Shown here: piece by piece, positions 4,203-45,434 of the stretch
Position numbering within the stretch: the stretch's first letter is position 1
Layout: the number at the start of each line of letters is the position of its first letter
DNA from: Gammaproteobacteria bacterium
GTDB lineage: Bacteria; Pseudomonadota; Gammaproteobacteria; UBA9214
DNA: 45,434 nt
Assembly: GCA_049664445.1 (NCBI GenBank)
Contig: JBATFE010000064.1
Span: 1-45,434, forward strand
Direction: 5' to 3'
Translations under genes and position numbers: made by a program
Notes under the pieces: generated by a model
Seen by the model: only the letters and a program-made list of their open reading frames with translations
What the model was told of the DNA's origin: nothing
Database searches by the model: none

Positions 4203-4218
4203 TATACTGCAAAGTATA
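4203..4218. promoter_or_regulatory. 16-bp palindrome TATACT-gcaa-AGTATA, a candidate TetR operator overlapping a -10-like hexamer
   Basis: Perfect 6-bp inverted arms with a 4-bp spacer, 22-37 nt upstream of the TetR ATG (4240). TATACT is itself -10-like. The AT-rich context raises the chance expectation. Confidence 0.35.
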
Positions 4219-4239
4219 TTTTTAGGGTAGGCTTTATTG

Positions 4240-4905: not shown

Positions 4906-4959
4906 GGTGCAGGCAGTGGTTACAGTCGGGGCCCTTGTCTTACAGGCCGTCGTAAAAAA

Positions 4960-9192: not shown

Positions 9193-9223
9193 AATACAGT
9201 GACAGACAAAAACGGTAACTGAC

Positions 9224-29007: not shown

Positions 29008-29717
29008 CCTGGCTCCTGTTGCAGCAGGAATTCCGCCCACGCCAGGTCGAGCGGCTCATCGATATTGACCACCGGGCGCTCTATGGGGACGGCGAGGGTA
29101 TCGTCCTGAATGATACTGCCCTGGTCCAGCAGGCCTTCCCGGGTCACCGCGTAAGCCAGACCGTTGCGGTAGTAATAGGCGCCGATCATCTGCCGGGAGG
29201 TGTAGCGCAGACCCTCTGCCAGGTAGGGTTTCAGATGGCCCTGGTCATCGATACAGAGGGTTCGTTCGGGGGTAAAGTGGGCCGGCGTCTGGCTGACCGT
29301 AACCGCAGAGCTGTTGCCGCTGTCTACCAGCAGGCGCACCGTCTTCAGGACATCATCCGGGCATCGCAGTGGACTGGTGGGTTCCAGCAGCACCGAGATA
29401 TCGATGCGGGTGCCGTAAGCCGCCTCGCTGGCATGCCAGGCATGCTGCCACATGTCCACGGCCGTGGCGCGGTCACCGGCCAGTTCCGGCGGGCGCATAA
29501 AGGGCACCTGCAGGCCATAGCGGCGACCCTCGGCCGCGATCTCCTCATCGTCTGTCGAGAGGATGCTGAAGTCCAGCCAGTCCAGCCCGGCCACCACATC
29601 GGCGGCCCGCGCAATCAGGGAGCGGCCGCCTATCCTCGACAGGTTCTTGCGCGGAATGCCCTTGCTGCCGCCGCGGGCGGGGATCACCGCGAGCACGGTT
29701 TTGTTCTCAAAACTCAT
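29004..29717 (-). CDS. neuA: Acylneuraminate cytidylyltransferase (CMP-sialic acid synthetase)
   Basis: N-terminal signature VLAVIPARGGSKGIPRKNL. About 237 aa, a CTP_transf_3-like layout. Confidence 0.9.
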   Translation of the reverse strand: MSFENKTVLAVIPARGGSKGIPRKNLSRIGGRSLIARAADVVAGLDWLDFSILSTDDEEIAAEGRRYGLQVPFMRPPELAGDRATAVDMWQHAWHASEAAYGTRIDISVLLEPTSPLRCPDDVLKTVRLLVDSGNSSAVTVSQTPAHFTPERTLCIDDQGHLKPYLAEGLRYTSRQMIGAYYYRNGLAYAVTREGLLDQGSIIQDDTLAVPIERPVVNIDEPLDLAWAEFLLQQEPG

Positions 29718-29989
29718 CTGTAGCTACCCGTAGCCATGTAGAGACTGTTGCACGTGCAATGATACGCTCTTTGGTCAACCGACCGCTCCAGGAAGAGAGC
29801 ACTGATGCAAGCAGCATTCCTGTATCCTTGCCACTGGTCATGTTCAAGCAACTCTCGTCAGGTGTAAACTTGGCGCACCCGGGTACATTCAGGCTGTCCC
29901 CGCCTTGACCAGGGCGGATGAAGCAGCATACAACACCGGGTCAACCATCCCGTGGATGGTACATGCAAGCTATCAACAAAGGCTCAGCT

Positions 29990-30934
29990 ATGACAATCAA
30001 GGTTGTATTCACCGGTCCACAGGAGGCGACGGCCTGGCTGGAAGAGGTGCTCGGCAGCGGTTTCGCCGTGATTCATGTCGCGGCGGAGCCGGAATCGGTC
30101 GCCCGTGGACTGCAGCAGGCGGATGTCTTTCTCGACGCCTCCATGAAGGTCCCGTTGACCGCTGCCATGATCAATGCAGCACACTCACTGCAACTGCTCA
30201 TTACCGCGACCACCGGGGCAGATCATATCGATACACAGGCGCTCGAGGCCCGTGGCATCCCGCTGAAAACACTGCGCGGGCAGGGCGAGTTTCTGCGCAA
30301 CATCACGCCGGCAGCGGAGCTGACCTGGCTGTTGCTGATGACCTGTGCCAGGCGTCTGCGTGGCGCCATCCAGCATGTGCAGGGTGGAGGCTGGGACCGC
30401 CAGCAGTTTCCCGGCATGATGCTGCATGGCCGCACGCTTGGCCTCATCGGTTGTGGCCGCATCGGCACCTGGGTATCCCGCTATGGCCAGGCCTTCGGGA
30501 TGCAGACGATCGGTTACGATCCCTTTTTGCAGCAGTTCCCGGAGACCATTGAGCAGCGCACCCTGGAGCAGGTGTTTTCCGAGGCCGACTTCGTGGCACT
30601 GACACTGACCTTCAGTGAAGCAACCCGGGGGCTGGTCACTGCCACGGAGCTGCAGCAGATGAAGCCGGGCGCGGTGCTGATCAACACATCACGGGGCGCC
30701 ATCGTGCGCGAACAGGACCTGCTGGAGGGTTTGCAGCAGGGGCGGCCGGCGTTCTACGGTACCGATGTCCTCGAAGGTGAACCCGATATCGGGCAGAGCC
30801 CCATCTGGCAATACGCCCGGGATCACGACAATGTCGTCATCACGCCGCATATCGGGGGATTCAGCCCCGACGCCCTGAAGCGGGTATTGCGCTTCACGGC
30901 GGAACGTATCGTCGCGTTTCTCGACCAGGGTTGA
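29990..30934 (+). CDS. D-isomer-specific 2-hydroxyacid dehydrogenase family protein, NAD-binding
   Basis: GRTLGLIGCGRIGTWVSRYGQAFGMQTIGYDP (GxGxxG plus the acidic end of beta-B) and the catalytic-His region VVITPHIGG. The ATG at 29990 (MTIKVVFTG) is preferred over the tracked 29918. Confidence 0.85.
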   Translation: MTIKVVFTGPQEATAWLEEVLGSGFAVIHVAAEPESVARGLQQADVFLDASMKVPLTAAMINAAHSLQLLITATTGADHIDTQALEARGIPLKTLRGQGEFLRNITPAAELTWLLLMTCARRLRGAIQHVQGGGWDRQQFPGMMLHGRTLGLIGCGRIGTWVSRYGQAFGMQTIGYDPFLQQFPETIEQRTLEQVFSEADFVALTLTFSEATRGLVTATELQQMKPGAVLINTSRGAIVREQDLLEGLQQGRPAFYGTDVLEGEPDIGQSPIWQYARDHDNVVITPHIGGFSPDALKRVLRFTAERIVAFLDQG

Positions 30935-30943
30935 TGCCGCGCA

Positions 30944-32494
30944 ATGTACCAGCAATTTGCCGCTGATTTCACCACGAGCGGGGGCCAGCTGGCCTTTGGC
31001 ATCACCGGCAGTGGACCCAGCCTGAGCCTCATCGATGCCCTGGAAAAGCACGGTGCGACGTTTATCACTACCGGTCACGAGAGTACCGCCGCATTGATGG
31101 CCGGCGCCTGCGCCCGCCTGGCGGGCAAGCCGGCACTGGCCCTGAGTATCAAGGGACCCGGTTTCATGAATATGCTGCCCGGGCTGCTGTGCAACGCCTA
31201 TGAGGGGCTCCCCTCGCTCTCGCTGGCCGAATCCTATCCACAGGGGCATGCAGACGCACGCTGCCACAAGTGGCTCGATCACCGCGCCGCCGCTGCCGAG
31301 TTCCTTAAGCAGCAGCGCTTCTTCGATCCCGGCCAGGGTTTTCTCGGGCACTGCTGGGCGAGTGCCCGGGAGGAGTTTCCGGGCCCGGTGCACATCGACC
31401 TGGGTGCTGGCGAGAATATTGCGACGGTGGCCGCTGCGGAGGCGCCGGACAGCCCCGATTTCGAACAACTGGCGAACCGCATCGCGCAATGCAGCCGGCC
31501 GGTCTTGATCGTCGGCTCACTGGGACTGCGCGCGCCCTGGGGCAGTGATCTGCAACACCTCGCTATCCCCGTTTTTACCACCCCGGCCGGCAAGGGTGTG
31601 CTGGATGAATCCCTGGCAATGGCCGCGGGCGTCTTCACCGGCGCCGGTAAACCCGACACCCCTGAAAAGCGCTTGCTGCCGGCGGCCGATCTGCTGGTGA
31701 TGCTGGGCGTGCGTGCCGGGGAGATACTCAATCCGGCGTTCGACCGGCCTGAAACCCTGCAGATCGATACCCTTGCGGCAAGCGGCGGGCAACTGTTTCC
31801 GGCCCGCAGCCTCGGCGAACAGCATATTCTCAGCGAGGCACAGATCGGGCAGCTGCTCGGTCTGCTGCAGCAAAAGCCGTGGGGTGAGGAGCGGATTGTC
31901 GCTGCCCGCGGGCATCTCGATGTGCTCGCCGAACAGTTTGGCTGGAGCCCGATAACCGCCATGCGGGTGTTACAGGCGGTTCTGCCCGGGGCCACCCACG
32001 TCCTCGATACCGGCAATTTTACCGTGCTGGGAGAACACTTCCTGAAGGCGACCACACCCAGCAGCCTGCTGGGTACGCCCAACGGCCGTTACATGGGGGC
32101 GGGGCTCGGCTACGCGCTTGGTGCAGCTTTCGCCTTGCCGGATACACCGGTCGTGCTGTGGATCGGCGACGGTGGCATCCGTTCACTGCTCGGTGAACTG
32201 GCGCTGGCGGCCGATCACAACCGCAAGCTGCTGGTGATGGTCATGAAGGATGGCTATTTCGGCAGCATTCGCGGCAGCGCCCTCAGCAATGGCCTGACAC
32301 AGAACCCGGTCAAGTTGTCCAAGCGCTCGCTGCTGCGCATCGGCGAGGCGCTCGGGTTGCATACGCTGGCGGCCGGCAGCGAAAGCCAGCTGCACAGCGT
32401 GCTCGATGGCTGGCGGCGGAATCCGGTGACAACACTGTGCGAATGCCCGCTGGAACCCGACCGTTACATCGAACTCACTGCGCGACTAAGGTGA
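30944..32494 (+). CDS. Thiamine-pyrophosphate-dependent enzyme, acetolactate-synthase-like fold
   Basis: N-terminal Pyr domain (AFGITGSGPSLSLIDAL...TGHESTAALMAGACARLAGKPALALSIKGPGFMN) and a C-terminal TPP-binding motif (IGDGGIRSLLGELALAADHNRKLLVMVMKDGYFGS). 516 aa. Confidence 0.85.
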   Translation: MYQQFAADFTTSGGQLAFGITGSGPSLSLIDALEKHGATFITTGHESTAALMAGACARLAGKPALALSIKGPGFMNMLPGLLCNAYEGLPSLSLAESYPQGHADARCHKWLDHRAAAAEFLKQQRFFDPGQGFLGHCWASAREEFPGPVHIDLGAGENIATVAAAEAPDSPDFEQLANRIAQCSRPVLIVGSLGLRAPWGSDLQHLAIPVFTTPAGKGVLDESLAMAAGVFTGAGKPDTPEKRLLPAADLLVMLGVRAGEILNPAFDRPETLQIDTLAASGGQLFPARSLGEQHILSEAQIGQLLGLLQQKPWGEERIVAARGHLDVLAEQFGWSPITAMRVLQAVLPGATHVLDTGNFTVLGEHFLKATTPSSLLGTPNGRYMGAGLGYALGAAFALPDTPVVLWIGDGGIRSLLGELALAADHNRKLLVMVMKDGYFGSIRGSALSNGLTQNPVKLSKRSLLRIGEALGLHTLAAGSESQLHSVLDGWRRNPVTTLCECPLEPDRYIELTARLR

Positions 32495-32738
32495 GCCTCG
32501 GCACGCAACGCATCATCAGGGGAGGGCACAGCGACAGAGGAACAGTCAGCCACAGATACTGGTCGTCGGCAGCGGTTCCGCGGGACAACGCCACGGCAGG
32601 AATCTTCGCGAACTCGGTTGCAGCATTAGCTATTTCGACCCGCGCGCCGACCGGGTCGAGCAGGCGGCGGCTACAGATGCAGCGGCCGGCCGCTTCACGG
32701 ACCTGGATAGCGCCATCGGCAAGCGTGCCTGGGACGGC

Positions 32739-33539
32739 GTGGTGATTGCCTCGCCACCCAATTTCCACGTGCAGCAGATACTGCAAATTCTGCATGCCCA
32801 GGCCTGCCCGGTGCTCAGTGAAAAGCCCCTGAGTATCGATGCGTCATCGGCGGCACGACTGCTAGAGTATTCCTCCCGCATCCTGCTGGGTTACACCTAC
32901 CGCTGGTGGCCGCCACTGGCAGAGTATCGACGCAGGCTGCAGGCGGGTGTCATCGGCAGTATCCGCAACATGCGTTTTGTCATGAGCGCCCACCTGGCGG
33001 ACTGGCACCCCTGGGAGCCCTACCAGGACTTCTTCATGGCCCAGAAAGGTCTGGGTGGCGGTGCCTTGCTGGATGAGAGTCACTTCATCGACCTGATGCT
33101 GTGGTTCCTCGGCTGGCCGCATAGCGTCTATGCCCAGGTCGACAAGATCTCGGACCTCGAGATCGACAGCGACGACAATGTCGACATCCTGGTGCGCTAT
33201 ACATCCGGCGAACGGGTCAATCTGCACCTTGACCTCATCGGACGGCCGCACGAGCGCAGCATCACGGCCGTGGGAGAGAAGGGCACCCTGGTCTATTCAT
33301 ACGAGGACAATGCCATTCTCCACGGCACCAGCGGGGAAAAGCTCTGGGACAGGCAAACCTTCGAATGCGAACGCAACGACATGTTCATGGGGGTTGCCCG
33401 CGACTACCTCGACATGATCAACGGCAGCCTGGTTGACAAGTGCTGCGCGGTGGAAGACGGTGTCGCCGCGCTGAAGATCGTGGATGCCTGTCGTCAGAGT
33501 TCCGCCACAGGGCGATCGGTCGCGCTTGGGGGCCAGTGA
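32739..33539 (+). CDS. Gfo/Idh/MocA family oxidoreductase; the tracked ORF lacks the Rossmann domain, which is encoded in-frame upstream without a canonical start
   Basis: The tracked ORF starts inside the conserved DGVVIASPPNFH...VLSEKPL segment. The same frame stays open back to 32490 and encodes ILVVGSGSAGQRHGRNL (GxGxxG) at 32556 onward. See the related finding. Confidence 0.75.
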   Translation: MVIASPPNFHVQQILQILHAQACPVLSEKPLSIDASSAARLLEYSSRILLGYTYRWWPPLAEYRRRLQAGVIGSIRNMRFVMSAHLADWHPWEPYQDFFMAQKGLGGGALLDESHFIDLMLWFLGWPHSVYAQVDKISDLEIDSDDNVDILVRYTSGERVNLHLDLIGRPHERSITAVGEKGTLVYSYEDNAILHGTSGEKLWDRQTFECERNDMFMGVARDYLDMINGSLVDKCCAVEDGVAALKIVDACRQSSATGRSVALGGQ

Positions 33540-33555
33540 ATAACCGCCGGCGATT

Positions 33556-34680
33556 GTGTCATGGCCCTTGCAGGGCATTGTCTCTTTATTGTGCCAGCGG
33601 GTTTTTAAAGTGAACGGCAAGCCAGCAGACAGCGCCTCGAACTTCACGCCTTACTTCGGCGGTCCGGATCTTCCGCGCGGCTGCCTGCGTGATGTGCTGG
33701 CGCAACGGGTGGCGGCCGTGCCGGCAGGCGGTGAGATCGACTGGGTCACCTACTATTTTCGTGACCGGCGACTGGCACAGGATTTACTCGATGCCCGCCG
33801 CAGGGGTGTCAGGGTGCGCGTGACGCTGGATGCAAAGCCACGTACCGGACATGCCAGCGAACGGGTCGTGGCCATGCTGTCAGGGCCCGATGGCCTGGGT
33901 CCTGATCTGCGCACCGTGCAGCACAGACCGTACCCCGGCTCCCGCAGGAAACCCCGCCTGCATGAGAAACTCTACTGTTTCTCCCACCCGGTTCCCGAGG
34001 CACTGCTTGGTTCGTTCAACCCGTCAGGCGATGATCCGGAAGAACAGCCGGATATCATCGACGAGATCCTGGACCAGGACCGGGGGCATAATTTTCTGGT
34101 GGCCATCAACGATCCGCAGTTGGTCAACGGACTGTTGCGGCATGCGCGCCATATCCACCGGGGCCGCCACGGGTTGCTGGAGCGTTTCGATCCGGCCATG
34201 AACAGGCGGCTCAGCAGCGGGGATACCACGATACACTTCTGGCCGCGCATTTTGCCCAACCCCTATTCGCACCTGCTGCAACGCTTTGGCAGCGGCGCCC
34301 TGGTGCGGGTGGCGGCCTCACACATCAAGGGGCCGGGTGGTGTACGTGATCTTGTCGGCCTGAGGCGTCGTGGCGCGCGGGTGGAGGTACTGGCGGAGAG
34401 TACCCACCGGCGCGTGCCTCCGGCAATCGAGACCACGCTGCTGCGGGCAGGGGTAAGGCTGCGGCGTTTTGAGCATCCCGAGGGACTGCCCATGCACAAC
34501 AAGTTCGTGCTGGTCGAGGACGGCAACGCGTGCCGGACCCTGTTCGGCAGCTGCAACTGGACATCCCGCTCCCGCTGGCTGAATCACGAGATTGGCGTTA
34601 TCACCCGAAATCGTGCCCTGTTCGAGACATTCTCACAACGCTGGGATACTATGCTTGGCCAGTTCACCATCCATGATTGA
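33556..34680 (+). CDS. Phospholipase D-like (two HKD motifs) protein with no signal peptide
   Basis: HKD motif 1 is RLHEKLYCF...GSFNPSGDD (His codon at 33961). HKD motif 2 is MHNKFVLVEDGNACRTLFGSCNWTSRS (His codon at 34495). The start is uncertain, GTG 33556 or GTG 33610. Confidence 0.75.
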   Translation: MSWPLQGIVSLLCQRVFKVNGKPADSASNFTPYFGGPDLPRGCLRDVLAQRVAAVPAGGEIDWVTYYFRDRRLAQDLLDARRRGVRVRVTLDAKPRTGHASERVVAMLSGPDGLGPDLRTVQHRPYPGSRRKPRLHEKLYCFSHPVPEALLGSFNPSGDDPEEQPDIIDEILDQDRGHNFLVAINDPQLVNGLLRHARHIHRGRHGLLERFDPAMNRRLSSGDTTIHFWPRILPNPYSHLLQRFGSGALVRVAASHIKGPGGVRDLVGLRRRGARVEVLAESTHRRVPPAIETTLLRAGVRLRRFEHPEGLPMHNKFVLVEDGNACRTLFGSCNWTSRSRWLNHEIGVITRNRALFETFSQRWDTMLGQFTIHD

Positions 34681-34692
34681 TCCAATATCCAA

Positions 34693-35739
34693 GTGACCGA
34701 TAGCTGGCTGCACAATCCACGTAACGCGGCGCCCTGCACCATTATTGCCGAGGTCGGCCAGGCCCACGACGGCAGCCTGGGTATGGCGCATGCCTTCATC
34801 GATGCGGCCGCGACGGCGGGCGCTGATGCCATCAAGTTCCAGACCCACATCGCCGCCGCCGAGAGCACCCTCGCCGAGCCCTGGCGAAAACGCTTCAGCC
34901 TGCAGGACGAGACGCGTCTCGATTACTGGCGCCGCATGGAATTCAGCGCCGAGCAGTGGGCCGGCCTGCAGCGCCACAGCCATGAACGCGGGCTGCTGTT
35001 CCTGAGTTCGCCCTTTTCCATGGAAGCACTGGAATTGCTGGAGCGCATTGGCGTGGCCGGCTGGAAGATTCCCTCCGGAGAGATCAACAACCCCCGGCTG
35101 CTGGAGGGCATGGGGCGTAGCGGACGTCCGGTGATGATTTCCACCGGCATGAGTCCCTGGCCCGAGATCGACGCGGCGGTAGAACGCGTGCGCGCTTTCA
35201 AGGTGCCGCTGGCGGTGCTGCAGTGCACCTCCATGTATCCCTGTCCGCCGGAACAGGTCGGACTGAACGTCATCGAGGAATTCAGGGCGCGTTACCAGTG
35301 TGCCGTGGGGCTGTCAGACCACTCCGCGAGCATTTATGCGGGGCTTGCTGCAGCCAGCCAGGGCATCGAGGTGCTGGAGGTGCATATCACACCCAGTCGC
35401 GAGCTTTTCGGGCCCGATATACCGGCGTCGGTGACAACCGCCGAACTGCGACAGCTGGTAACGGGCGTCCGGGCCATCGAAACCATGCGTGCCAACCCGG
35501 TAGACAAATCGGCACCGCCGGATGCGGTGACACCGCTCAGGGATATTTTCATGAAGAGCGTGGTTGCCAGCCGTGACATGGTCGCCGGTACGGTGCTGCA
35601 GACCGAACACCTGACCACCAAGAAACCGGGCTGCGGCATCCCCGCAGAGCAGCTGGAGTCATTGATAGGACTGCGTACACGCAGGGCAATCAGCCGGGAC
35701 AGCCTGATTTCAATGGATGACCTGGAGGGCAGATCATGA
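34693..35739 (+). CDS. neuB: N-acetylneuraminate (nonulosonate) synthase family protein
   Basis: IIAEVGQAHDGSLGMAHAFIDAAATAGADAIKFQTH (NeuB/PseI/LegI-type TIM barrel N-terminus) with a C-terminal SAF/antifreeze-like domain. GTG start. Confidence 0.88.
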   Translation: MTDSWLHNPRNAAPCTIIAEVGQAHDGSLGMAHAFIDAAATAGADAIKFQTHIAAAESTLAEPWRKRFSLQDETRLDYWRRMEFSAEQWAGLQRHSHERGLLFLSSPFSMEALELLERIGVAGWKIPSGEINNPRLLEGMGRSGRPVMISTGMSPWPEIDAAVERVRAFKVPLAVLQCTSMYPCPPEQVGLNVIEEFRARYQCAVGLSDHSASIYAGLAAASQGIEVLEVHITPSRELFGPDIPASVTTAELRQLVTGVRAIETMRANPVDKSAPPDAVTPLRDIFMKSVVASRDMVAGTVLQTEHLTTKKPGCGIPAEQLESLIGLRTRRAISRDSLISMDDLEGRS

Positions 35740-36896
35740 GTATTCGTAAAGTGTGTGTGGTGATTACAGCACGGCCCAGTTATTCCCGGGTGCGCTCGGT
35801 GCTGACCGCTATTCGCGAGCACCCCGAACTGGAACTGCAGCTGGTGGTGGCCGCATCGGCCCTGCTGGAGCGTTACGGCAATGCCCACCTGGTGATGGAA
35901 CAGGAGGGTTTCCACATCGACCGTCGTATCTACATGATCGTCGAAGGGGAGACGCTGGTGACTTCCGCCAAGTCCACCGGCTTTGGACTGGCTGAAATGG
36001 CCACCACGCTCGATGACCTGAAACCTGACATGGTGATCACCATCGCGGACCGCTTCGAAACCATCGCCACGGCGATTGCGGCGGCCTATCTGAATATCCC
36101 GCTGGTTCATCTGCAGGGCGGTGAGGTCACCGGCTCGATCGATGAAAAGGTACGACATGCCGTTACCAAGCTGGCTGATATCCACCTGGTGGCCAGTGAT
36201 CAGGCGGCCACCCGGGTGATACGCATGGGTGAAAAGGAAGACCGGGTGTTCGTCACCGGCTGTCCCTCCATCGATGTCGCGGCCAGCGCCATTGCGGACG
36301 ACACCATCAGCCTGGAAACGATCATCGACCGCTTCGGTGGCGTTGGCGAGCGGGTGGACCTGAGCCCGGGTTATATTGTGGTGATGCAGCACCCGGTGAC
36401 GACCGAATACCGGCAGTCGCGCCGCCATATCGAGGAGACCCTGTACGCGGTCGCCGCGTCGAAATTACCCACCCTGTGGTTCTGGCCAAATGTGGACGCC
36501 GGTTCCGACGGCACCTCCAAGGGTATCCGTGCCTTTCGCGAGGCCCATGAACTCCCTAACATTCACTTTTTCAAGAATCTGCCACCCGAGGATTTTCTCA
36601 TGGTGCTGCATCACAGCCGCTGCATTGTCGGCAATTCCAGCGTGGCGGTACGCGAGTGTGCCTTCCTCGGTGTACCGGCAGTCAATATCGGCAGCCGCCA
36701 GAGTGGCCGCGACCGCGGCAGGAATATCATCGATGTGGATTATGAGCGCGAGCAGATCAGCGCCGCCATTGAACACCAGATCAACGCCCCGCGTCCACAG
36801 CAGGACCTGCTGTATGGTGACGGTCATGCAGGCGTGCGTATTGCGGAGGTGTTGACCACGGTACCGCTTGGAATCGAAAAGCAGCTTCCCTACTGA
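35736..36896 (+). CDS. neuC: UDP-N-acetylglucosamine 2-epimerase, hydrolysing NeuC type
   Basis: KVCVVITARPSYSRV..., GGEVTGSIDE, and CIVGNSSVAVRECAFLGVPAVNIGSRQSGR. The ATG overlaps the neuB stop (ATGA at 35736-35739). Confidence 0.88.
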   Translation: MSIRKVCVVITARPSYSRVRSVLTAIREHPELELQLVVAASALLERYGNAHLVMEQEGFHIDRRIYMIVEGETLVTSAKSTGFGLAEMATTLDDLKPDMVITIADRFETIATAIAAAYLNIPLVHLQGGEVTGSIDEKVRHAVTKLADIHLVASDQAATRVIRMGEKEDRVFVTGCPSIDVAASAIADDTISLETIIDRFGGVGERVDLSPGYIVVMQHPVTTEYRQSRRHIEETLYAVAASKLPTLWFWPNVDAGSDGTSKGIRAFREAHELPNIHFFKNLPPEDFLMVLHHSRCIVGNSSVAVRECAFLGVPAVNIGSRQSGRDRGRNIIDVDYEREQISAAIEHQINAPRPQQDLLYGDGHAGVRIAEVLTTVPLGIEKQLPY

Positions 36897-37143: not shown

Positions 37144-38037
37144 TTACTTCCGGCCCGGTTTTTTCAGCAAGAGTTTCTTGAAGTGTTGCAAGGCATCACC
37201 TTGCAGGGACTCCACGTCGGTAGAGTAACCGAATAGTCGGGCTCCCGGTTCGAGCTGAGTCAGGATCCTGTCCCGGTAACGATTTTTACGAAATTGATTT
37301 TTGATAAAGAAATAATTCTTCTGTGACTTCCGGGGGAGGGTAATGGCATGTAAATGATAATCGGGGTCCGTAAGCCCAAGAAAATCGAACAATTTCTTGA
37401 CCGTCGTATCAGGCTCGGCGACGAGTTCCTCGTAGCGGCACAACACCCAGTTTTCATTATGGTATTTTTTGTAGGCGTCGCATGCCGCTCGCCAGGAATG
37501 CGCAGCCTTGAGCAACAAGTCGTCGGGAAGACTGTCGAAATCCGCGGTTCGCAAGAGAAAGCTGGCTTTCTGCTTGATCGTCATAGACTGCAAGGTATGC
37601 CAGGGATGACGGATACAGAAAACGTATTGAGCGTTGGGAAACATTTCCTGAAGCAGATTGACTCGCAATACGTGCAGAGGATTCTTTATCACCAAACGGA
37701 AAGTCCTGGCGTGATTGAGATACGCTTGTCGTACCCGCTGCACCGCGTCTGCATCGTAGATTGGAACGTCAATGCTGTGTCGCTTGCCATTCAGTGCGTA
37801 GGAGGAAAACGTGAAGTGCTGACACCAGATATCGTCATCTACAACACCGGAACGATCTTCAGGGCAGGATCGGCGCTTGTTTTTGAGCGAGTGTTCCGTG
37901 ATCAGGAAATTGCCCGGATAACCACCCAGGATACGGGACGTTAATAGTGTGCCCGATCGAGGGCATCCCAGAATTATTATAGGAGACCGATCGTCTGCAA
38001 CGCGATCGCTCGATAAAGCGTTGGTCGAGTCATTCAT
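37144..38037 (-). CDS. Sulfotransferase family protein, PAPS-dependent type
   Basis: 5'-PSB loop IIILGCPRSGTLLTS and the downstream LVIKNPLHVLRVNLLQEMFPNAQYVFCIRHPWHTLQS pattern typical of bacterial Sulfotransfer_3-like enzymes. Local GC is clearly lower than the surroundings. Confidence 0.85.
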   Translation of the reverse strand: MNDSTNALSSDRVADDRSPIIILGCPRSGTLLTSRILGGYPGNFLITEHSLKNKRRSCPEDRSGVVDDDIWCQHFTFSSYALNGKRHSIDVPIYDADAVQRVRQAYLNHARTFRLVIKNPLHVLRVNLLQEMFPNAQYVFCIRHPWHTLQSMTIKQKASFLLRTADFDSLPDDLLLKAAHSWRAACDAYKKYHNENWVLCRYEELVAEPDTTVKKLFDFLGLTDPDYHLHAITLPRKSQKNYFFIKNQFRKNRYRDRILTQLEPGARLFGYSTDVESLQGDALQHFKKLLLKKPGRK

Positions 38038-38178
38038 TGGGAGGTGGCGAGATTAATCGAGAAGTACGGCCTTCTTATTGACATACGAAGCATAACCTTC
38101 CCGTTTCGCGGGAATCAACCTGAACGGCCGTCGCAAACACACCTCCACGGCTGAATCGCTGACTCCCTGGCACGATAC

Positions 38179-38937
38179 CTAGAGAGTAGGTCGGAAATGT
38201 GAAGATCCTAGAAAGCGGCGGCTGTGTTTGAAGGCCTTCTGTCTTTCGTCGTGCAGGGCTTTCAACTCGTCGCCGTTACAGCCATCCAGCAACCCCTGGT
38301 CGCGAAAGACATCGAAGCGGAATCGGCGACCAAAGATCTGTTGGAGCACGTAACAAGTACGCAAGCGGGTTTCTACAATCGCCGAGACGCTCTGCCTGGA
38401 GTTGTTCACAACATGGACGAGGTCAAGGTCGCAGGTTTTGACACCATCCGATGGTGCCAGGGTAGACGGCCCGTCGACGAAGACGAACGAGTAAGGGCGA
38501 TCCGGCAGGTCACGGTAGCGCATGCCCCGGAACAGCCAATAATGGGTTTCCACGGTTGGGGACAAACGCAGGTCCACGTACTCACTCAGCGAAGCAGGAA
38601 ACAGTTCACCTGCCATTTCATACCAGCCCTGGTGCTCCTCCATCGAGGTTACCCGACCGGGTTCACTCCCTTCTCGGGCGTTTTCGGCTAACGCATAAGC
38701 GATCACTACGGTGGAGACGCCTGTACCGCACTCCAGTACTTCACGGGGCCGCAAAGTCCGTATGCGCCGATACAGCGTCGCATAGTCGGACCATGAGCAG
38801 CCAGTTGATTCGGTCCTGGACAGGTAGGTGCGCAGCAGCCGAGGAAGTTCTCCGGCAGATTCAATAAAGCGGCGGTCGCCTGTAGTGACCAACCTCTTGC
38901 CTATCGAGGTCAGGGCACGTCGCGCCGAATAAGTCAT
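38179..38937 (-). CDS. Class I SAM-dependent methyltransferase-like protein
   Basis: Motif I VLECGTGVSTVVIAYAL and a later FVFVDGP motif. The ATG at 38937 with GAGGA 8 nt upstream is preferred over the tracked GTG at 38988. Confidence 0.7.
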   Translation of the reverse strand: MTYSARRALTSIGKRLVTTGDRRFIESAGELPRLLRTYLSRTESTGCSWSDYATLYRRIRTLRPREVLECGTGVSTVVIAYALAENAREGSEPGRVTSMEEHQGWYEMAGELFPASLSEYVDLRLSPTVETHYWLFRGMRYRDLPDRPYSFVFVDGPSTLAPSDGVKTCDLDLVHVVNNSRQSVSAIVETRLRTCYVLQQIFGRRFRFDVFRDQGLLDGCNGDELKALHDERQKAFKHSRRFLGSSHFRPTL

Positions 38938-39021
38938 GTTCCTGTCCTCATCCAGTACTTTCGCCGTTATTCTCTTTGCCGTAAACACAACGAGCTATTG
39001 TTCCCGCCCCAACATTCACAG

Positions 39022-40761
39022 TCAATCACGGCCAGCAATATCCTTCACCAGCAGCACATGTCCGTCCTGCAAGCGGTAGGCCCGCTCGGCGGCGTCCAGC
39101 ATGGCAGGTTGGTGCGAGATGGCCAGGATGGTATGCGTACCCTGCAATGTGCGCAGGGTTTCGCAAATGGCCGCTTCACTCTTCGGGTCGAGTGCCGAGG
39201 TTGCCTCATCCAGTATCAGCAGCCGCGGACGGTGCACCAGGGCACGTGCAATCATGACGCGCTGCCGTTGACCGCCGGAGAGTTTGCCGCCGCGTTCACC
39301 GACGATGTGATGGATGCCCTCGGCCAGCTTCTCCACGAACGCCCAGGCGCCGGCTTCCCGGAGTGCCGAAATGACATCGGTTTCACTGATCCCGGGGTCT
39401 CCCAGTGCCACATTGTTGAGTACCGAATCGTGCAGCAGAACGGTTTCCTGCGGCACGTAACCGATGATGCTGCGCCAGCGGTGCAGATCGAGTTCCATCA
39501 GCGGAACCCCGTCGACCAGCAGTGTGCCACTATCCGGTTGCAACAAGCCGATGATCAGGTCCAGGCTGGTGGTCTTGCCCGACCCCGAGGGCCCGATCAG
39601 GGCGGTAAAGGAACCGGCCGGGATGCTGATGTTTATCTGCTCGAGTATTTTTTTCTCTGCATAGGCGAAACTGACATCCCGCAACTCGATGCCCTGCTCG
39701 AGGGTTGGCGTGCGCTCGCCCCCCAGGTCTTCGCGTGCGCGTTCAGCCCTGTTGATGGTTTTCTGGATCGACCAGTAGGCAGACTCGGAGACTGCCGTCT
39801 TCTGGTAGCTGCGTTGTACCTGGCCGGTCCTCTTCAATATCCTGGAGAGCAGAAAACCGAGTACCATCACCGTCGCAATCGGCAGTTCCCACTTCACCAG
39901 CGTGACATAGATACCGATTACCAGCACCAGCGCGAACAGTATCTCCTGTCCGGCTGACAGTAATTCGCTGCTCACCACTTCCCGGCGCAGGGCGCGGTTG
40001 ATATTCTTTGTCTCCGATACCAGCACGGTATCCACCAGGCCTTCGCGTCCCATCGACTTGAGTGGCTTCACCGACAGCAGGGTGTCTGTCAGGCGTGCAA
40101 TCATCAGCTTGGTATACAGTGTCTGGCGCCTGCCGGCCTTGCGTGCCATTTTGACCAGGCGACCCAGCGCCAGATAGATAAGCAGGCCCATCAGAAAAGA
40201 AAACAGCGCGGCCTGCCACATCACCAGGGTGGCGATGATGACGTAAACCAGCGCCTGTATAAGTTGTGATATCAGCGTAGCGCCATGCAGGTAGGCATTG
40301 GCTGCCCTGACTGCCTCGATCGACATGGAGTTGGTCAACTGTCCAAGCGGTTGATGCAGAAAGTATTCCCAGCGCGAGGCCAGCATTGCACGCAGCATCG
40401 ACAGGCGCAGGTCGGTGGCGACGTGGGCAACAATGTAGCCAACCTTTTTCTTGGCCAGCAGAATGAGACCGCCCTTGACGATCGCTCCAGCGACAATGAC
40501 CAATAGCAGCAACTCGACACTCGGTGACAACCCCACGGCCTCGATACTGCGGAGCACTGTATCGCCGACCCCGGAGTCGGAGCCGGCTTCAAGCGCTGCC
40601 GTATCATCACCGGGCGCACCCGGTTTCACCAGGACACGGTTCAGCAGTGGTAGCAGGGCGGTCAGACTGAGACCCTCGACCAGACCGGCCACCAGCAGTG
40701 CAATCAGCATGATGGCACTCTGCAGCGGGTAGGCTCGGGCAAAGGTCTTCAACAGGTGCAT
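39022..40761 (-). CDS. ABC transporter with fused permease and ATPase, MsbA-like lipid exporter type
   Basis: N-terminal six-helix TMD followed by an NBD with Walker A GPSGSGKTT, signature LSGGQRQR and Walker B LLILDEATSALD. 579 aa half-transporter. Confidence 0.92.
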   Translation of the reverse strand: MHLLKTFARAYPLQSAIMLIALLVAGLVEGLSLTALLPLLNRVLVKPGAPGDDTAALEAGSDSGVGDTVLRSIEAVGLSPSVELLLLVIVAGAIVKGGLILLAKKKVGYIVAHVATDLRLSMLRAMLASRWEYFLHQPLGQLTNSMSIEAVRAANAYLHGATLISQLIQALVYVIIATLVMWQAALFSFLMGLLIYLALGRLVKMARKAGRRQTLYTKLMIARLTDTLLSVKPLKSMGREGLVDTVLVSETKNINRALRREVVSSELLSAGQEILFALVLVIGIYVTLVKWELPIATVMVLGFLLSRILKRTGQVQRSYQKTAVSESAYWSIQKTINRAERAREDLGGERTPTLEQGIELRDVSFAYAEKKILEQINISIPAGSFTALIGPSGSGKTTSLDLIIGLLQPDSGTLLVDGVPLMELDLHRWRSIIGYVPQETVLLHDSVLNNVALGDPGISETDVISALREAGAWAFVEKLAEGIHHIVGERGGKLSGGQRQRVMIARALVHRPRLLILDEATSALDPKSEAAICETLRTLQGTHTILAISHQPAMLDAAERAYRLQDGHVLLVKDIAGRD

Positions 40762-40828: not shown

Positions 40829-42031
40829 TCAGGCGGTCGTCTGCAGTTTTTCCGTGAAAAGCGAAAAGGCGTCCAGAATGGCCTCGATCTGCACCTGGCT
40901 ATGGGCCGCGCTGAGACTGCAGCGCAGCAGCGGTTTGCCGCCCGGGGTAGCCGGCGGGAGGACCAGATTGACATAGATGCCCTGTGACAGTAATTCATTC
41001 CATAGTGCGGTTGTCTCCCCGACGGTTGCGGGCAGTCGCACCGCTATCACCGGGCTGATCTCCGGGCCGAGCTCAAAACCCATGGCCGCCAGGCCCTGGT
41101 ACAGTTGTGTGGCGTTGTCCCAGAGTTTTTTCCGCAGTGCGCTGCTACGGCTGAGGATCTCCAGGGCTTTACGGGTCGAGGCAATCAGGGACGGTGAGGA
41201 GGATGCGGTGAATATGTAGGGACGCATGGCATAGCGCACAGTTTCCAGCTGCGGCCAGCGGCTGACACAGAAGCCACCGATAGACCCCAGGCTTTTACTG
41301 AAGGTGCCGGTAATGAAGTCCACCCCGGACTCGACACCGAGCTCTTCAGCCAGCCCCCTGCCTTGCTCGCCGAGCACGCCCAGCGAATGGGCCTCGTCTA
41401 TCAGCAGCGATGCGCCATAGCGGTTCTTGACGTCTACAATCTCGCGCAACGGTGCCCGGTCACCGAGCATGCTGTAGATCCCTTCCACCACCACCAGGGT
41501 GTTGCCGGCACGGTCACCCAGTCGTTGCAGGCGCTTTTCCAGATCCGCCGGGTTGTTGTGCTGAAAACGGATCACCTGGGCGCTTCCGAGACGGGTGCCA
41601 TCGTAGATACTGGCATGACAATCGGCGTCCAGCAGGATGACATCCTCGGAACCCGTCAGCGTCGAGAGTATCGCCAGATTCGCGATGTAGCCGGTTGAAA
41701 AGACAATTGCAGCGGGACAGTTGAAAAAGGCCGCCAGTTCGTTCTCCAGCGCCACGTGCGCGGCATAGCTGCCGTTCGCCATGCGCGAGCCCGTGGTGCC
41801 GGTGCCCTCTTCACTGACCGCCCTGCAGGCTGCTGCGACGCATTCCGGATCGAAGGTGAGTCCCAGATAGTTGTTGGTGCCGGCCATGATCACCTTGCGG
41901 CCATTGATGATCGCTTCTGTGGCCGACACCACGCGCTCTACGACGACATGAAAGGGGTCCACGCCACTGTCGGCAACCAGCCCGGCACGCGTTTCCTCAA
42001 GGGGCCGGAATTTATCGAAAAGGCTTGCCAT
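40829..42031 (-). CDS. spt: Serine palmitoyltransferase-like alpha-oxoamine synthase, PLP-dependent
   Basis: PLP-lysine motif GTFSKSLGSIGGF (Lys codon at 41294-41296). The N-terminus LFDKFRPL...GVDPFHVVVERVVSATEAIINGRKVIMAGTNNYLGLTFDP and the central DEAHSLG resemble the Sphingomonas SPT sequence as I recall it. The start lies 3 nt after the ACP stop. Confidence 0.85.
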   Translation of the reverse strand: MASLFDKFRPLEETRAGLVADSGVDPFHVVVERVVSATEAIINGRKVIMAGTNNYLGLTFDPECVAAACRAVSEEGTGTTGSRMANGSYAAHVALENELAAFFNCPAAIVFSTGYIANLAILSTLTGSEDVILLDADCHASIYDGTRLGSAQVIRFQHNNPADLEKRLQRLGDRAGNTLVVVEGIYSMLGDRAPLREIVDVKNRYGASLLIDEAHSLGVLGEQGRGLAEELGVESGVDFITGTFSKSLGSIGGFCVSRWPQLETVRYAMRPYIFTASSSPSLIASTRKALEILSRSSALRKKLWDNATQLYQGLAAMGFELGPEISPVIAVRLPATVGETTALWNELLSQGIYVNLVLPPATPGGKPLLRCSLSAAHSQVQIEAILDAFSLFTEKLQTTA

Positions 42032-42034
42032 CTG

Positions 42035-42283
42035 TCAGCTCTCTTTCAGCAATTCCTGCAATTGTTCTGCCAAATCTCCAAGGCTGTTTACCCTGGGAAG
42101 GATATTCAGGGGCACAGAGATATCGAAATGATCCTCGATCTGCGTCATCAGTTCCATGACCTTCACTGAATCCAGGCCCACCTCATTGATGAGGCCGGTC
42201 TCTTCACCGAGCTCGATCGGTTCCTTGGCGTAAGGACGAACCAGTGCGTAGAGTTGATCAAGGATTTCCTGTTTGCTCTGCAT
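42035..42283 (-). CDS. Acyl carrier protein, stand-alone
   Basis: Phosphopantetheine attachment site GLDSVKVMEL. The ATG at 42283 (MQSKQEILDQLY) with GGAGA about 10 nt upstream is preferred over the tracked start at 42334. Confidence 0.85.
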   Translation of the reverse strand: MQSKQEILDQLYALVRPYAKEPIELGEETGLINEVGLDSVKVMELMTQIEDHFDISVPLNILPRVNSLGDLAEQLQELLKES

Positions 42284-42388
42284 CTTTGTCCGGTCTCCAT
42301 AATTGTATGGATGCGGCTGGCCGACATCCAGCATGCACGTTATCGGTCATCAGCCTGATACGCAATTACACTTTGCTGACAGGCCGTC

Positions 42389-43336
42389 TCATGCCGCACG
42401 CGCGGGCCCACCCCAGCCCATGGTACGCTGCAGGCCCTCTTGCAGGGAAAATCCCGGCTGCCAGCCGATAGCGGCAGTCAATGCCGCGTTATCCGCTACC
42501 CAGTCGGGATGCCGCAGCTCGCGTACCTTTCCCGGTGTCAGCATGGGAGCATAACCGATCAAGCGTGCAGTGGTGGCATTCACGGCAGCAAGCGAGCGCA
42601 ACAACGCTGACGGCAAGGGTAGCCGGATGATGCGTTTGCCGCGCAGCGCCGAGATAATGGCGATGATGTCATCCCAGCTGTAACCACCGGCCCGGGTATC
42701 GTTCAGTTCGTAAATTCCGCTACGGCACTGTCCGGCATCAAGCCACATGAGCACAGCGGCGCACAGGTCTTCGACATACAGCAATGACACCCGGGCATCC
42801 GCTGCCCCCAGTACCGGCGCAATGCCACGCCCCATCCACTGGAACAGCGGCAGCATTTCCCTGTCCCCCGGGCCGTATACGGCGGGGGGGCGGAATGCAG
42901 CCCACTCCATATCATCTGCCATGCTGGCCAGGGCATCTTCCCCCTGGCGCTTGCTGGATGCGTAATGGGAGAGCTGCGGTGCACGCGCTGCCAGAGACGA
43001 GAGCGACAGAAATCTGGGTCTGGGTGACTGCGCGAGTGCGGCCTGCACCAGCTGTTTCACAGCGTCGACATTGACGGTGTTGAAATCGTCAGCCGTCACG
43101 CCACGAACGGCGCCGGCACAGTGCACCACGGCTTCGGCACCCTGCAGCAAGCGCTGTAGTGTCAGGCGATCGTGCAGAGAACCGATTACGGTTTCAAGCC
43201 CGGTCAACTCCGGGAGTTTATGGGCGGAACGGGGACGCGTCAGTGCTTTTACATGCCAGCCGGCGCTCAGCAGGTGTTTCGTCAGCATGGCGCCGATGAA
43301 GCCGGTGGCGCCGGTTACGGCAATGGTTCGTGACAT
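42389..43336 (-). CDS. NAD-dependent epimerase/dehydratase family (extended SDR) protein, candidate CerR-like ketoreductase
   Basis: N-terminal IAVTGATGFIGAMLTKHL Rossmann motif, 315 aa. It lies between the acyl-ACP synthetase and the ACP, as the epimerase-like reductase does in the Caulobacter ceramide cluster. Confidence 0.85.
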   Translation of the reverse strand: MSRTIAVTGATGFIGAMLTKHLLSAGWHVKALTRPRSAHKLPELTGLETVIGSLHDRLTLQRLLQGAEAVVHCAGAVRGVTADDFNTVNVDAVKQLVQAALAQSPRPRFLSLSSLAARAPQLSHYASSKRQGEDALASMADDMEWAAFRPPAVYGPGDREMLPLFQWMGRGIAPVLGAADARVSLLYVEDLCAAVLMWLDAGQCRSGIYELNDTRAGGYSWDDIIAIISALRGKRIIRLPLPSALLRSLAAVNATTARLIGYAPMLTPGKVRELRHPDWVADNAALTAAIGWQPGFSLQEGLQRTMGWGGPARAA

Positions 43337-43362
43337 GAAGAACCAGCGGCATCTGCGGGTTG

Positions 43363-45144
43363 TCAGCCGGCCTCTTGCTGTGACAGGCCGGTCGTCGCTT
43401 CCCTCTGTCGCTGCACAGCGATCGGTTTGAGCGGGTGCGCGTCGATGTAATTCTGTCTTGCCTTGGATCGGGACAGCTTGCCCGACGAAGTCCGCGGCAG
43501 GGTGTGTAGCGGCGCCAGCTCGATGTGGCAGTCGACGCCCACCTCGGCATGGATCAGTCCCTGCAGGTGCCTGATCAATTCCGCGCGCTTGTCACTGTCC
43601 TTGTCGCGGTACTGCACCACCATCACCGCTACGTCCGCGCCATCCGTACCCGGCACTGCAAATGCAAGGGCGTCTCCCGGACGCACATCCGGCTGCTGCT
43701 CCGCAAGCTGCTCCAGATCCTGCGGCCAGATATTGCGGCCGTTGATGATGATCAGATCCTTGCTGCGACCTGTGATCATGATGCTGTCACCTGCCCGGTA
43801 GCCGATGTCACCCGTGTTCAGCCAGCCATCCGCCGAGAGCGTCTCGGCCGTGATAGCCGGTTCGTTGAAGTAACCCGACATGACACTTGGCGCACGCACG
43901 TGGAGTACACCGATATGCCGTTCCGGCAGCACCTGTCCCGCGGCATCCCTTACCTCGACTTCAAACGACGACAGCGGTACACCACAGTTCACAAACTCAC
44001 TCAGGCGCCCGTTGACCGCCTCCGCCGCCGGTCGTGCATGATCCAGCAGTGCCAGGTGATCCGCATCCACACGGTCCACCGCCAGCCCGCCACCCAGTGG
44101 CGCAAAACTCACCGCCAGTGAACACTCCGCCATGCCGTAACAGGCCAGAAATGCCTTGCGATCAAATCCGCTCGGGGCAAGTGTCTCTGCAAAGTCACGC
44201 AGAACCTGTGGCCGGATCGTCTCCGCACCCACGCCCGCGACACGCCAGGCGCTCAGGTCAAACGTTTCAGCCTCACCTTCACGCAGTCGCCGGTTGCACA
44301 GTTCATAACCAAACGGCGGACTGAACGAGATAGTCGCCTTGTTGCGTGACACCAGCGACAACCACTGGCGCGGGCGCATCGCAAACTCGCGCGTGCCGAG
44401 ATAGTCCACCGACAACTGCGAGGCCAGCGGTGCCAGCACCAGGCCGACCAGGCCCATGTCATGATAGAAGGGCAGCCAGGAGACGCAACGGTCCGTTATC
44501 CTCATTTCCATACCTTCGGTGATGATCCCCGAAAGGTTGTTCAATACTGCCCGCTGGGTAATCATCACACCCCGTGGAAAACGGGTACTGCCCGAGGTGT
44601 ACTGCAGATAGGCAAGCTCATCAGCCTGCATTGGTTGCAACACGCCGGCCTGCTGTGACAGTGCGTCATAGTCTTGCGGCGTGCCGACAAACGTCAGCTC
44701 CAGCCCCGCGGTCGCACCTGAAAGCAGATCTGAATAATCTGTCGGCGCCATCGCCAGCGATGCCTGGCAGCCTTGCGTCATGGCGCGTATCTGCGCGACA
44801 TACGCCTTGTGACTGCCCGGGTTATGGGGAATAGGTAACGGTACCGGAACCAGGCCCGCGTACTGACAGGCAAAGAAAAAACGCAGAAAATCGGGATGGG
44901 TGTCCGCAACGATGACCATGCGCGCGCCGCGCGCGGTCCCCAGACCACGCAGCCGTCGCGCCAGACACTGTGCCTGATCTCTCAGTTCCGCATAGGTCAG
45001 CACCGCATAGAGCTCGCCGCGACTGGTATAGAAGTTACACCCTGTTCGCCCCAACGCAGCATAATCAAGGGCCGCTGCAAGATTCGGAAAATCCGCAGCC
45101 CTCAATGGCAGGTTGTTACCAGTTTTAGTTGCTTCCAAACCCAA
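43363..45144 (-). CDS. Fatty-acyl-AMP ligase / acyl-ACP synthetase, AMP-binding superfamily
   Basis: Adenylation core YLQYTSGSTRFPRGVMITQ, later GWLNTGDIGY and a C-terminal SSGKLSR. The TTG start at 45144 lies 7 nt after GAGGAG. Confidence 0.9.
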   Translation of the reverse strand: MGLEATKTGNNLPLRAADFPNLAAALDYAALGRTGCNFYTSRGELYAVLTYAELRDQAQCLARRLRGLGTARGARMVIVADTHPDFLRFFFACQYAGLVPVPLPIPHNPGSHKAYVAQIRAMTQGCQASLAMAPTDYSDLLSGATAGLELTFVGTPQDYDALSQQAGVLQPMQADELAYLQYTSGSTRFPRGVMITQRAVLNNLSGIITEGMEMRITDRCVSWLPFYHDMGLVGLVLAPLASQLSVDYLGTREFAMRPRQWLSLVSRNKATISFSPPFGYELCNRRLREGEAETFDLSAWRVAGVGAETIRPQVLRDFAETLAPSGFDRKAFLACYGMAECSLAVSFAPLGGGLAVDRVDADHLALLDHARPAAEAVNGRLSEFVNCGVPLSSFEVEVRDAAGQVLPERHIGVLHVRAPSVMSGYFNEPAITAETLSADGWLNTGDIGYRAGDSIMITGRSKDLIIINGRNIWPQDLEQLAEQQPDVRPGDALAFAVPGTDGADVAVMVVQYRDKDSDKRAELIRHLQGLIHAEVGVDCHIELAPLHTLPRTSSGKLSRSKARQNYIDAHPLKPIAVQRQREATTGLSQQEAG

Positions 45145-45254
45145 GAGTAGTCTCCTCTTAAACTAGCAGACAGCTACAGTGTTAGAACCATCTGCAGGGC
45201 TGTAGTGAACATCGTTAAAATGTGCCCAGGCCCAGAAAACTATAACCTTGGAGT

Positions 45255-45272
45255 CAGGGATTCATATCCCTG
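45255..45272. promoter_or_regulatory. 18-bp inverted repeat CAGGGAT-tcat-ATCCCTG upstream of the lipid operon, a candidate operator
   Basis: Perfect 7-bp arms, about 110-130 nt upstream of the acyl-AMP ligase start, in a lower-GC non-coding stretch. Confidence 0.25.
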
Positions 45273-45434
45273 TACAGGTATCCTTCACAAGTATATGACC
45301 TGAAAAGAAATCGACCCCAAAATCACAACATAGGCAAATACTTATGCATTCTCCAAGATTTCCGTACAAACCGCAACCCGCAAAAGAGATTTATACCTGA
45401 CTAAAATGATGGCGCGTTTCGGATTGGAGCAGGG

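Follow-up and report, generated by a model that had tools for sequence, protein, structure and literature searches.

Here we describe a stretch of 45,434 nucleotides (nt) of DNA (hereafter, the window) from a Gammaproteobacteria bacterium of the UBA9214 lineage (assembly GCA_049664445.1, contig JBATFE010000064.1, positions 1–45,434 of the forward strand). On its minus strand, at positions 40829–45144, it carries four co-directional genes that encode an AasR-type ligase, a CerR-type short-chain dehydrogenase/reductase (SDR) and an AcpR-type acyl carrier protein (ACP), as well as a serine palmitoyltransferase (SPT). The chromosomal context is origin-proximal, with yidC, mnmE, mnmG, rsmG, parAB, the atp operon, glmUS and uvrD, and the nearest relatives of the SPT come from metagenome-assembled genomes (MAGs) labelled Ectothiorhodospiraceae, Gammaproteobacteria and Sedimenticolaceae. 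These labels support the first-pass annotation, which was made from the sequence alone and had called the chromosome gammaproteobacterial-looking. It had also placed four open reading frames (ORFs) in the block and quoted a motif for each; all four ORFs are present at these positions on the minus strand, and all four motifs were found in their translations. The block and its 5′ region are organized as follows.

43363–45144, minus strand: aasR-type fatty acyl-AMP ligase/acyl-ACP synthetase, 593 amino acids (aa), TTG start (NF006624, 3pbk, E. coli homologue)
42389–43336, minus strand: cerR-type NDUFA9-like extended SDR, 315 aa, predicted ceramide/3-keto reductase (Pfam, PDB, E. coli homologue)
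42035–42283, minus strand: acpR-type dedicated ACP, 82 aa, in a maximal ORF that extends to 42334 (Pfam PP-binding)
40829–42031, minus strand: spt, serine palmitoyltransferase, 400 aa (NF047599, PDB 2x8u, E. coli Spt)
45145–45434, no strand assigned: ORF-free non-coding region 5′ of the ligase gene, up to the window end, presumed promoter region

The gaps between ligase and SDR, SDR and ACP, and ACP and SPT are 26, 105 and 3 nt, respectively. A scan of the window found no terminator-like site inside these gaps or between spt and the ABC transporter gene that follows it, the overall number of such sites being that expected from shuffled sequence; promoter-like sites also occurred at shuffle expectation and are hence uninformative. 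An Rfam scan of the window gave no match and a tRNA scan found none. We then used the SPT to seed a scan with one genome per species, which yielded 57 loci with an SPT at least 50% identical to that of the window. The order ligase, SDR, ACP, SPT is colinear within 4 kb in 41 of these 57 loci, and this recurrence indicates a conserved operon rather than a coincidence.

Each of the three genes ahead of spt matches its expected family. The ligase gene starts with TTG behind a AAGAGGAGA ribosome-binding site, and its translation contains YLQYTSGSTRFPRGV. The protein scores 786 bits on the NCBIfam model NF006624 (fatty acyl-AMP ligase; cut-off 600), finds its best PDB match in 3pbk (550 bits; deposited under the name 'Fatty Acyl-Adenylate Ligase') and is 46% identical to the ligase of the Escherichia coli spt cluster. 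The SDR contains VTGATGFIG, with the nucleotide-binding motif GATGFIG, and matches the Pfam families Epimerase, NAD_binding_10 and 3Beta_HSD; its PDB matches are to NDUFA9 and to an epimerase subunit of the complex-I type, and it is 48% identical to the epimerase of the E. coli cluster. CerR has been described with the same NDUFA9 kinship (PMC11087976). The ACP matches Pfam PP-binding (E = 6.8e-10), carries the DSV serine motif within GLDSVKVMEL and shares 35% identity with its E. coli counterpart from the spt cluster. Its gene and motif had been recognized in the first-pass annotation, but the length given there (83 aa) is revised to 82 aa, counted from an ATG with a GGAGA Shine–Dalgarno sequence. 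The ACP stop codon lies 3 nt ahead of the spt start, so that a dedicated ACP gene directly precedes spt.

The fourth protein is an α-oxoamine synthase (AOS), and its place within this family was assigned by curated hidden Markov model (HMM) cut-offs and by ranking against solved structures. It scores 616.2 bits on the NCBIfam equivalog model NF047599 (serine palmitoyltransferase; cut-off 500). An AOS enzyme of the BioF, Kbl, ALAS or CqsA type, unrelated to sphingolipids, would share the fold, and the protein indeed gives significant HMM matches for all of these families; yet every one of their curated cut-offs is missed while the SPT model passes (BioF, 324.5 versus 426 bits; Kbl, 309.3 versus 460; ALAS, 226.5 versus 339; CqsA-type synthase, 215.8 versus 428). 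The ranking against the PDB agrees, being headed by the SPTs of S. wittichii (2x8u, 434 bits), S. paucimobilis (404 bits) and S. multivorum (278 bits), followed by Kbl (231 bits), a cysteate-C-fatty acyltransferase (216 bits), Alistipes finegoldii SulA (7u7h, 204 bits), BioF (about 161–185 bits) and CqsA (131 bits). With SPT leading this ranking by about 200 bits, we give an assignment to one of these other families almost no weight. The identification as SPT made in the first-pass annotation is thus upheld, both by the model cut-offs and by the best solved relatives.

The active site also agrees with that of an SPT. The lysine that binds pyridoxal 5′-phosphate (PLP) is K246, within GTFSKS, and residues N53, H139, D212, H215, K246, A276 and R370 are all conserved; H139, D212, H215 and R370 align with H159, D231, H234 and R390 of S. 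paucimobilis SPT, and N53 aligns with N53 of SulA. A leucine at the position of S. paucimobilis Arg378 was considered as an anomaly and dropped: it carries no weight because E. coli Spt, which uses serine, has the same leucine. The window SPT is 57% identical to E. coli Spt, which forms 3-oxo-sphinganine from serine (PMC9386255).

The first-pass annotation had further held that the sequence could not separate condensation of serine from condensation of cysteate, by which the block would yield a capnine-type sulfonolipid. The fold and most active-site residues are indeed common to Spt and SulA, SulA also takes an acyl-ACP donor, and sequence gives no absolute exclusion; a sulfotransferase gene nearby moreover points to some sulfur-related chemistry at the locus. 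However, cysteate enzymes are reported to differ clearly from Spt at a single active-site position, 30 residues past the PLP lysine, where they have Lys281 and Spt has an alanine (PMC9304779). In the window SPT this position (K+30) is Ala276, within a conserved FTAS motif, the equivalence to Lys281 being established by equal spacing and the motif and not by an alignment with SulA. Among solved structures, the cysteate acyltransferases reach 216 and 204 bits, about half of the 434 and 404 bits obtained with the two best SPTs, and the curated SPT model is passed. The companions of the enzyme are also those of ceramide loci: AasR, AcpR and CerR in the window and, in its relatives, the bacterial ceramide synthase bCerS and LptF2/LptG2. 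We therefore regard cysteate as very improbable, and the data support an SPT that is predicted to condense L-serine with acyl-ACP or acyl-CoA to give 3-ketodihydrosphingosine.

The ceramide pathway of proteobacteria has been described since 2021–2022, and comparison with its known clusters places the four genes. In Caulobacter crescentus, CC_1162 is spt, CC_1163 acpR, CC_1164 an epimerase/dehydrogenase gene and CC_1165 aasR, and spt co-occurs with acpR, epimerase and aasR genes in alpha-, beta- and gammaproteobacteria (PMC9386255). The window has the same four gene families in the same order as CC_1165–CC_1162, with the dedicated ACP directly before spt, as the first-pass annotation had noted (PMC9386255). 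Its close relatives extend the likeness, with bCerS (CC_1154 in Caulobacter), two nucleoside triphosphate (NTP)-transferase genes and LptF2/LptG2 beside the block, as in CC_1152–1156. The window differs in the ABCB-type exporter after spt, and no homologue of the Wzx-like CC_1166 was seen; this comparison was made through the sequences of the E. coli homologues.

The cluster of E. coli B/BL21 is also gammaproteobacterial, running from yghO (ECD_02850, divergent) through a fatty acyl-AMP ligase (FAAL), an epimerase and an ACP to spt (ECD_02854). In the annotated copy that we compared (locus L079), identities to the window are 46% (FAAL), 48% (epimerase), 35% (ACP) and 57% (spt). The Spt of this cluster uses acyl-AcpR, and the Spt and AcpR/AasR system has been assayed (PMC9386255). 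In contrast to the window, the genes after spt there are lptG/lptF paralogues and one annotated as a 'lipopolysaccharide biosynthesis protein', in place of an ABCB-type exporter gene, and the cluster is without a sialic-acid-type island. By description, the ceramide/CPG2 clusters in Azotobacter vinelandii and in Pseudomonas luteola are also gammaproteobacterial and contain the five ceramide genes with LptF2/G2, contiguously and without orthologues of CC_1166–1168, whereas neither an ABC exporter nor nonulosonic-acid genes are mentioned in the paper (PMC11324152). The novelty of such a block in gammaproteobacteria had thus been overestimated, given E. coli B, Azotobacter and P. luteola (PMC9386255, PMC11324152).

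Because the SPT cut-off is passed, the catalytic residues and Ala276 are kept, the E. coli genes form an orthologous set and the order recurs in 41 of 57 loci, we read the block as the predicted core operon of the Caulobacter-type ceramide pathway of proteobacteria, with a probability of about 0.88. As such the four-gene core is a known and ordinary cluster, which adds one more lineage to a described pathway. The locus differs from those described in having a conserved ABCB-type exporter gene after spt and an adjoining, variable sugar island.

The pathway also calls for bCerS, and a tblastn search with E. coli YghO and the bCerS of a relative found no homologue in the window, as the first-pass annotation had stated. 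An exact-protein look-up of the ligase retrieved two short Logan contigs that extend the sequence by 794 nt past the window end, and this extension (contig L001) contains no bCerS homologue either. Taken at face value, these negatives would fit a genome without ceramide synthase, in which the pathway either has a free long-chain base as its end product or supplies some other amino lipid. The relatives argue otherwise. All close relatives with sufficient upstream sequence, namely L003, L005–L009, L056, L080 and L081 (SPTs 86–95% identical where measured), encode a 384-aa GNAT-type protein about 50% identical to YghO on the opposite strand, 1.2–3.8 kb upstream of the ligase gene, and two NTP-transferase genes as well as LptF/LptG paralogues come after it; yghO (ECD_02850) is itself a homologue of CC_1154, the Caulobacter bCerS gene (PMC9386255).

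The best model locus is L081, which has the window's genes on both sides of the operon, minus two genes inserted in the window. Its bCerS gene lies about 2.5 kb upstream of the ligase gene, and between them stand a 142-aa gene and a 497-aa gene of the TIGR04396 family. The fragment of L001 just past the window is 72% identical to the C terminus of this 497-aa protein. With bCerS near the ligase in the best syntenic relatives, bCerS most likely lies about 2–3 kb beyond position 45434, and we hold a pathway that stops short of ceramide to be improbable. The suggestion that bCerS lies past 45434 thus gains support from synteny in relatives, as an inference and not a direct observation.

Several genes of this upstream region are of interest in themselves. 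Positions 1–564 of L001 hold the 3′ portion of a second TIGR04396-family gene, which lies immediately upstream of the ligase gene in the same orientation; this gene is full length (497 aa) in L081, occurs as two non-contiguous pieces in L080 and is reduced to a 36-aa remnant in L003. The 142-aa protein of L081 (u142, 4590–5018), which has a weak HIT-domain match, is encoded beside bCerS or the NTP-transferase genes in many distant sphingolipid loci (46–61% identity). In L080 (6633–7892) and L103 (1137–2483), the interval from the bCerS side to the ligase gene contains a gene for an enolpyruvyl transferase of the EPSP-synthase/MurA family, possibly a further head-group enzyme.

Downstream of spt, the window contains an exporter gene and a set of sugar-related genes, as listed below.

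39022–40761, minus strand: ABCB-type (MsbA/PglK/HepA-like) half-transporter, 579 aa, candidate sphingolipid flippase/exporter (Pfam ABC_membrane and ABC_tran)
38179–38988, minus strand: methyltransferase, 269 aa, strain-specific (Pfam Methyltransf_24)
37144–38037, minus strand: sulfotransferase, 297 aa, strain-specific, low G+C (Pfam Sulfotransfer_3, 100 bits)
29918–36896, plus strand: convergent cassette of a 2-hydroxyacid dehydrogenase, a thiamine pyrophosphate (TPP) enzyme, a GFO/IDH/MocA oxidoreductase, a PLD-like protein, a NeuB-like synthase and NeuC
29004–29717, minus strand: CMP-sugar synthetase-like cytidylyltransferase (PseF-like, 109 bits)
27634–29040, minus strand: TIGR04396 'surface carbohydrate biosynthesis protein' (357 bits, cut-off 125)

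The half-transporter gene follows spt on the same strand after 67 nt, and no terminator-like site separates the two. Its 579-aa product matches Pfam ABC_membrane and ABC_tran, has six transmembrane-like segments and finds ABCB4, PglK and MsbA among the solved structures. Like MsbA and PglK, which are type IV ABC flippases for lipids and lipid-linked oligosaccharides, it is a half-transporter with six transmembrane segments and one ATPase domain, with significant similarity to both. It differs from them in falling below the curated cut-offs for MsbA (TIGR02203, 226 versus 602 bits; NF008381, 183 versus 867) and PglK (203 versus 1000), and in having spt as its genomic partner rather than genes for lipid A or N-glycosylation. 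The assignment as an MsbA orthologue was rejected on the MsbA cut-offs; what is shared is the fold class.

To follow the exporter independently of the operon, we scanned metagenome contigs with the exporter alone as seed and kept 80 loci, in which it is 48–98% identical to that of the window. Sixteen of these have no flank on the relevant side. In 60 of the 64 informative loci the exporter gene stands beside core sphingolipid genes, and the remaining 4 are without them. Two arrangements occur: spt immediately upstream, as in the window (23 loci, 72–98% identity), and LptF2–LptG2–ABC–(ELM1-family gene)–ACP–SPT (37 loci, 48–56% identity). The linkage between exporter and sphingolipid genes survives rearrangement between two divergent clades.

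Both laboratories in the field state that no inner-membrane sphingolipid flippase has been identified (PMC11087976; bioRxiv 10.64898/2026.04.12.717747); the Caulobacter candidate, CC_1166, is Wzx-like and is described as 'quite different from MsbA'. In the literature that we searched, coverage of which is incomplete, no paper was found that ties an MsbA-like exporter or nonulosonic acid to bacterial sphingolipids. Its conserved gene neighbourhood makes the exporter a candidate for a bacterial sphingolipid flippase.

Some loci depart from the two arrangements. In L096 (9136–10412) and L103 (8822–9403), whose exporters are about 74–75% identical to that of the window, a gene passing the LptA model (both loci) and LptB (L096) directly follow the exporter gene, with a distant GNAT gene beyond them. 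These may be second copies or the housekeeping genes; according to a 2026 preprint, duplicates of lptA or lptB were not found in sphingolipid loci. The locus L012, which has the LptF2–LptG2–ABC arrangement (type B), contains two ELM1-family genes (PF06258) on the opposite strand, one just upstream of LptF2–LptG2–ABC (3250–4323) and the other between the ABC gene and the ACP–SPT pair (8510–9676); the other type-B loci have a gene-sized gap at the second position, the gene being annotated in L012 only. In L003 (11424–13007), a locus with a 95% identical SPT, the exporter gene is broken into three ORFs, by frameshift errors or as a pseudogene, and the island downstream differs, with Glyphos_transf and pyruvyl transferase genes.

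Several points weigh against reading the locus as a ceramide operon with an exporter of its own. The lineage consists of uncultured MAGs, known here from their genes, and ceramide production is accordingly a prediction. bCerS is not seen in this genome. The Klein and Geiger laboratories disagree on whether acylation or reduction comes first (PMC9386255, PMC11087976). A small number of related sediment projects supplied many of the exporter loci, and their counts are not independent events. The substrate of the exporter is predicted from gene adjacency. Finally, exporters of the MsbA/PglK type also flip lipid A or undecaprenyl-linked glycans.

The sugar island lies between the exporter gene and uvrD. 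Positions 27634–36896 of the window hold a minimal sialic-acid-type pathway, with NeuC, a NeuB-like synthase and a CMP-transferase-like gene, together with the TPP enzyme, the 2-hydroxyacid dehydrogenase and the PLD-like protein. NeuC passes its model (TIGR03568, 372 bits; cut-off 236), whereas the NeuB-like synthase is under its cut-off (TIGR03569, 313 versus 400 bits), and the cassette also has matches to Pfam PLDc_2 and GFO. L011 and L081 likewise have the cassette (29918–36896) after the ABC gene, at 63–91% identity, and some of its genes are closer to L081 (NeuC, 91%) than the SPT is (86%). The methyltransferase and sulfotransferase genes (37144–38988, minus strand) have a G+C content of 0.56 and 0.50, against about 0.61 nearby, are without a homologue in any of about 160 fetched loci, and are absent from the otherwise syntenic L081 and L011, being inserted between the exporter gene and NeuC. 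The pair looks like a recent, strain-specific acquisition. Relatives with SPTs 92–98% identical have entirely different sugar genes at the island position, and the island thus behaves as a hypervariable surface-glycan island.

What this island decorates can be read in two ways. In one, the exporter would be the inner-membrane sphingolipid flippase of a large group of uncultured, mostly sediment gammaproteobacteria, a non-orthologous replacement of CC_1166, and the island would decorate ceramide; we put this forward as a tentative proposal, more doubtful than not. In the other, the ceramide operon is as described above, but the exporter and the island serve lipopolysaccharide (LPS), O-antigen or capsule, and their position reflects a clustering of surface-lipid genes. 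We regard this as a serious possibility, falling somewhat short of an even chance. It draws on the known lipid A and undecaprenyl-linked glycan substrates of MsbA/PglK-type exporters, on the wide occurrence of the TIGR04396 family in bacteria without known sphingolipids, and on the island between uvrD and the exporter gene being wholly different among relatives whose SPTs are 92–98% identical, in the manner of O-antigen-type islands. It is opposed by the adjacency of the exporter to spt/acpR or LptF2G2 in 60 of the 64 informative loci, across both clades, and by a TIGR04396 paralogue placed in line, with bCerS on one side and the ligase on the other, in L081 and also in this genome. The island is also without a polytopic membrane protein, so that by this test it encodes no Wzx, Wzy, WaaL or initiating phosphoglycosyl transferase. 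The lack of Wzx-type genes together with the in-line TIGR04396 gene fits decoration of ceramide, and is equally compatible with LPS or capsule made elsewhere. Structure did not narrow the choice: the TIGR04396 protein has no sequence match in the PDB, and its AlphaFold model (pLDDT 90.8) shows a generic GT-B fold that matches UDP-GlcNAc 2-epimerases at a TM-score of 0.45–0.6, and an attempt to assign its donor and acceptor from these generic matches failed.

Returning to the ceramide operon and the tentative roles of its neighbours, we propose the following mechanism, in which the first four steps follow from orthology to tested enzymes (PMC9386255, PMC11087976) and the later ones from gene context. 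The AasR-type ligase would adenylate a free long-chain fatty acid and load it onto the dedicated AcpR. SPT would then condense acyl-AcpR with L-serine to 3-ketodihydrosphingosine, which the GNAT-type bCerS/YghO, predicted about 2–3 kb past the window end, would N-acylate, and the CerR-type SDR would reduce the 3-keto group to give dihydroceramide. The ABCB-type exporter, apparently co-transcribed after spt, may carry ceramide or decorated ceramide across the inner membrane, and LptF2/LptG2, encoded beside bCerS in the closest relatives, may extract the lipid towards the outer membrane. The strain-variable island, with its sialic-acid-type sugar genes, TIGR04396 transferases, methyltransferase and sulfotransferase, may supply the head group.

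The four-gene core alone teaches little, and the neighbouring exporter matters more: in dozens of loci it keeps its place beside spt or LptF2G2 despite rearrangement, and it is a concrete, testable candidate for the inner-membrane step. If the island does decorate ceramide, it would add a sialic-acid-type sugar and, in this strain, methyl or sulfate groups as well, giving a ganglioside- or sulfatide-like glycosphingolipid as variable between strains as an O-antigen. Bacteria would then make sialylated or sulfated glycosphingolipids, which to our knowledge have so far been associated with animals.

Two features of other genes in the window deserve mention. In the GFO/IDH/MocA oxidoreductase gene (32490–33539, plus strand), no ATG, GTG or TTG codon precedes the Rossmann motif. 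Its open frame extends back to 32490, and AGG stands where the L081 homologue has its first methionine. Loss of the start codon, use of a non-canonical one or an error in sequencing may account for this. The window also contains two genes of the PLD family, one for the PLD-like protein of the cassette (33556–34680) and the other for a 523-aa ClsB-like protein encoded between parB and the atp operon (10282–11853, plus strand).

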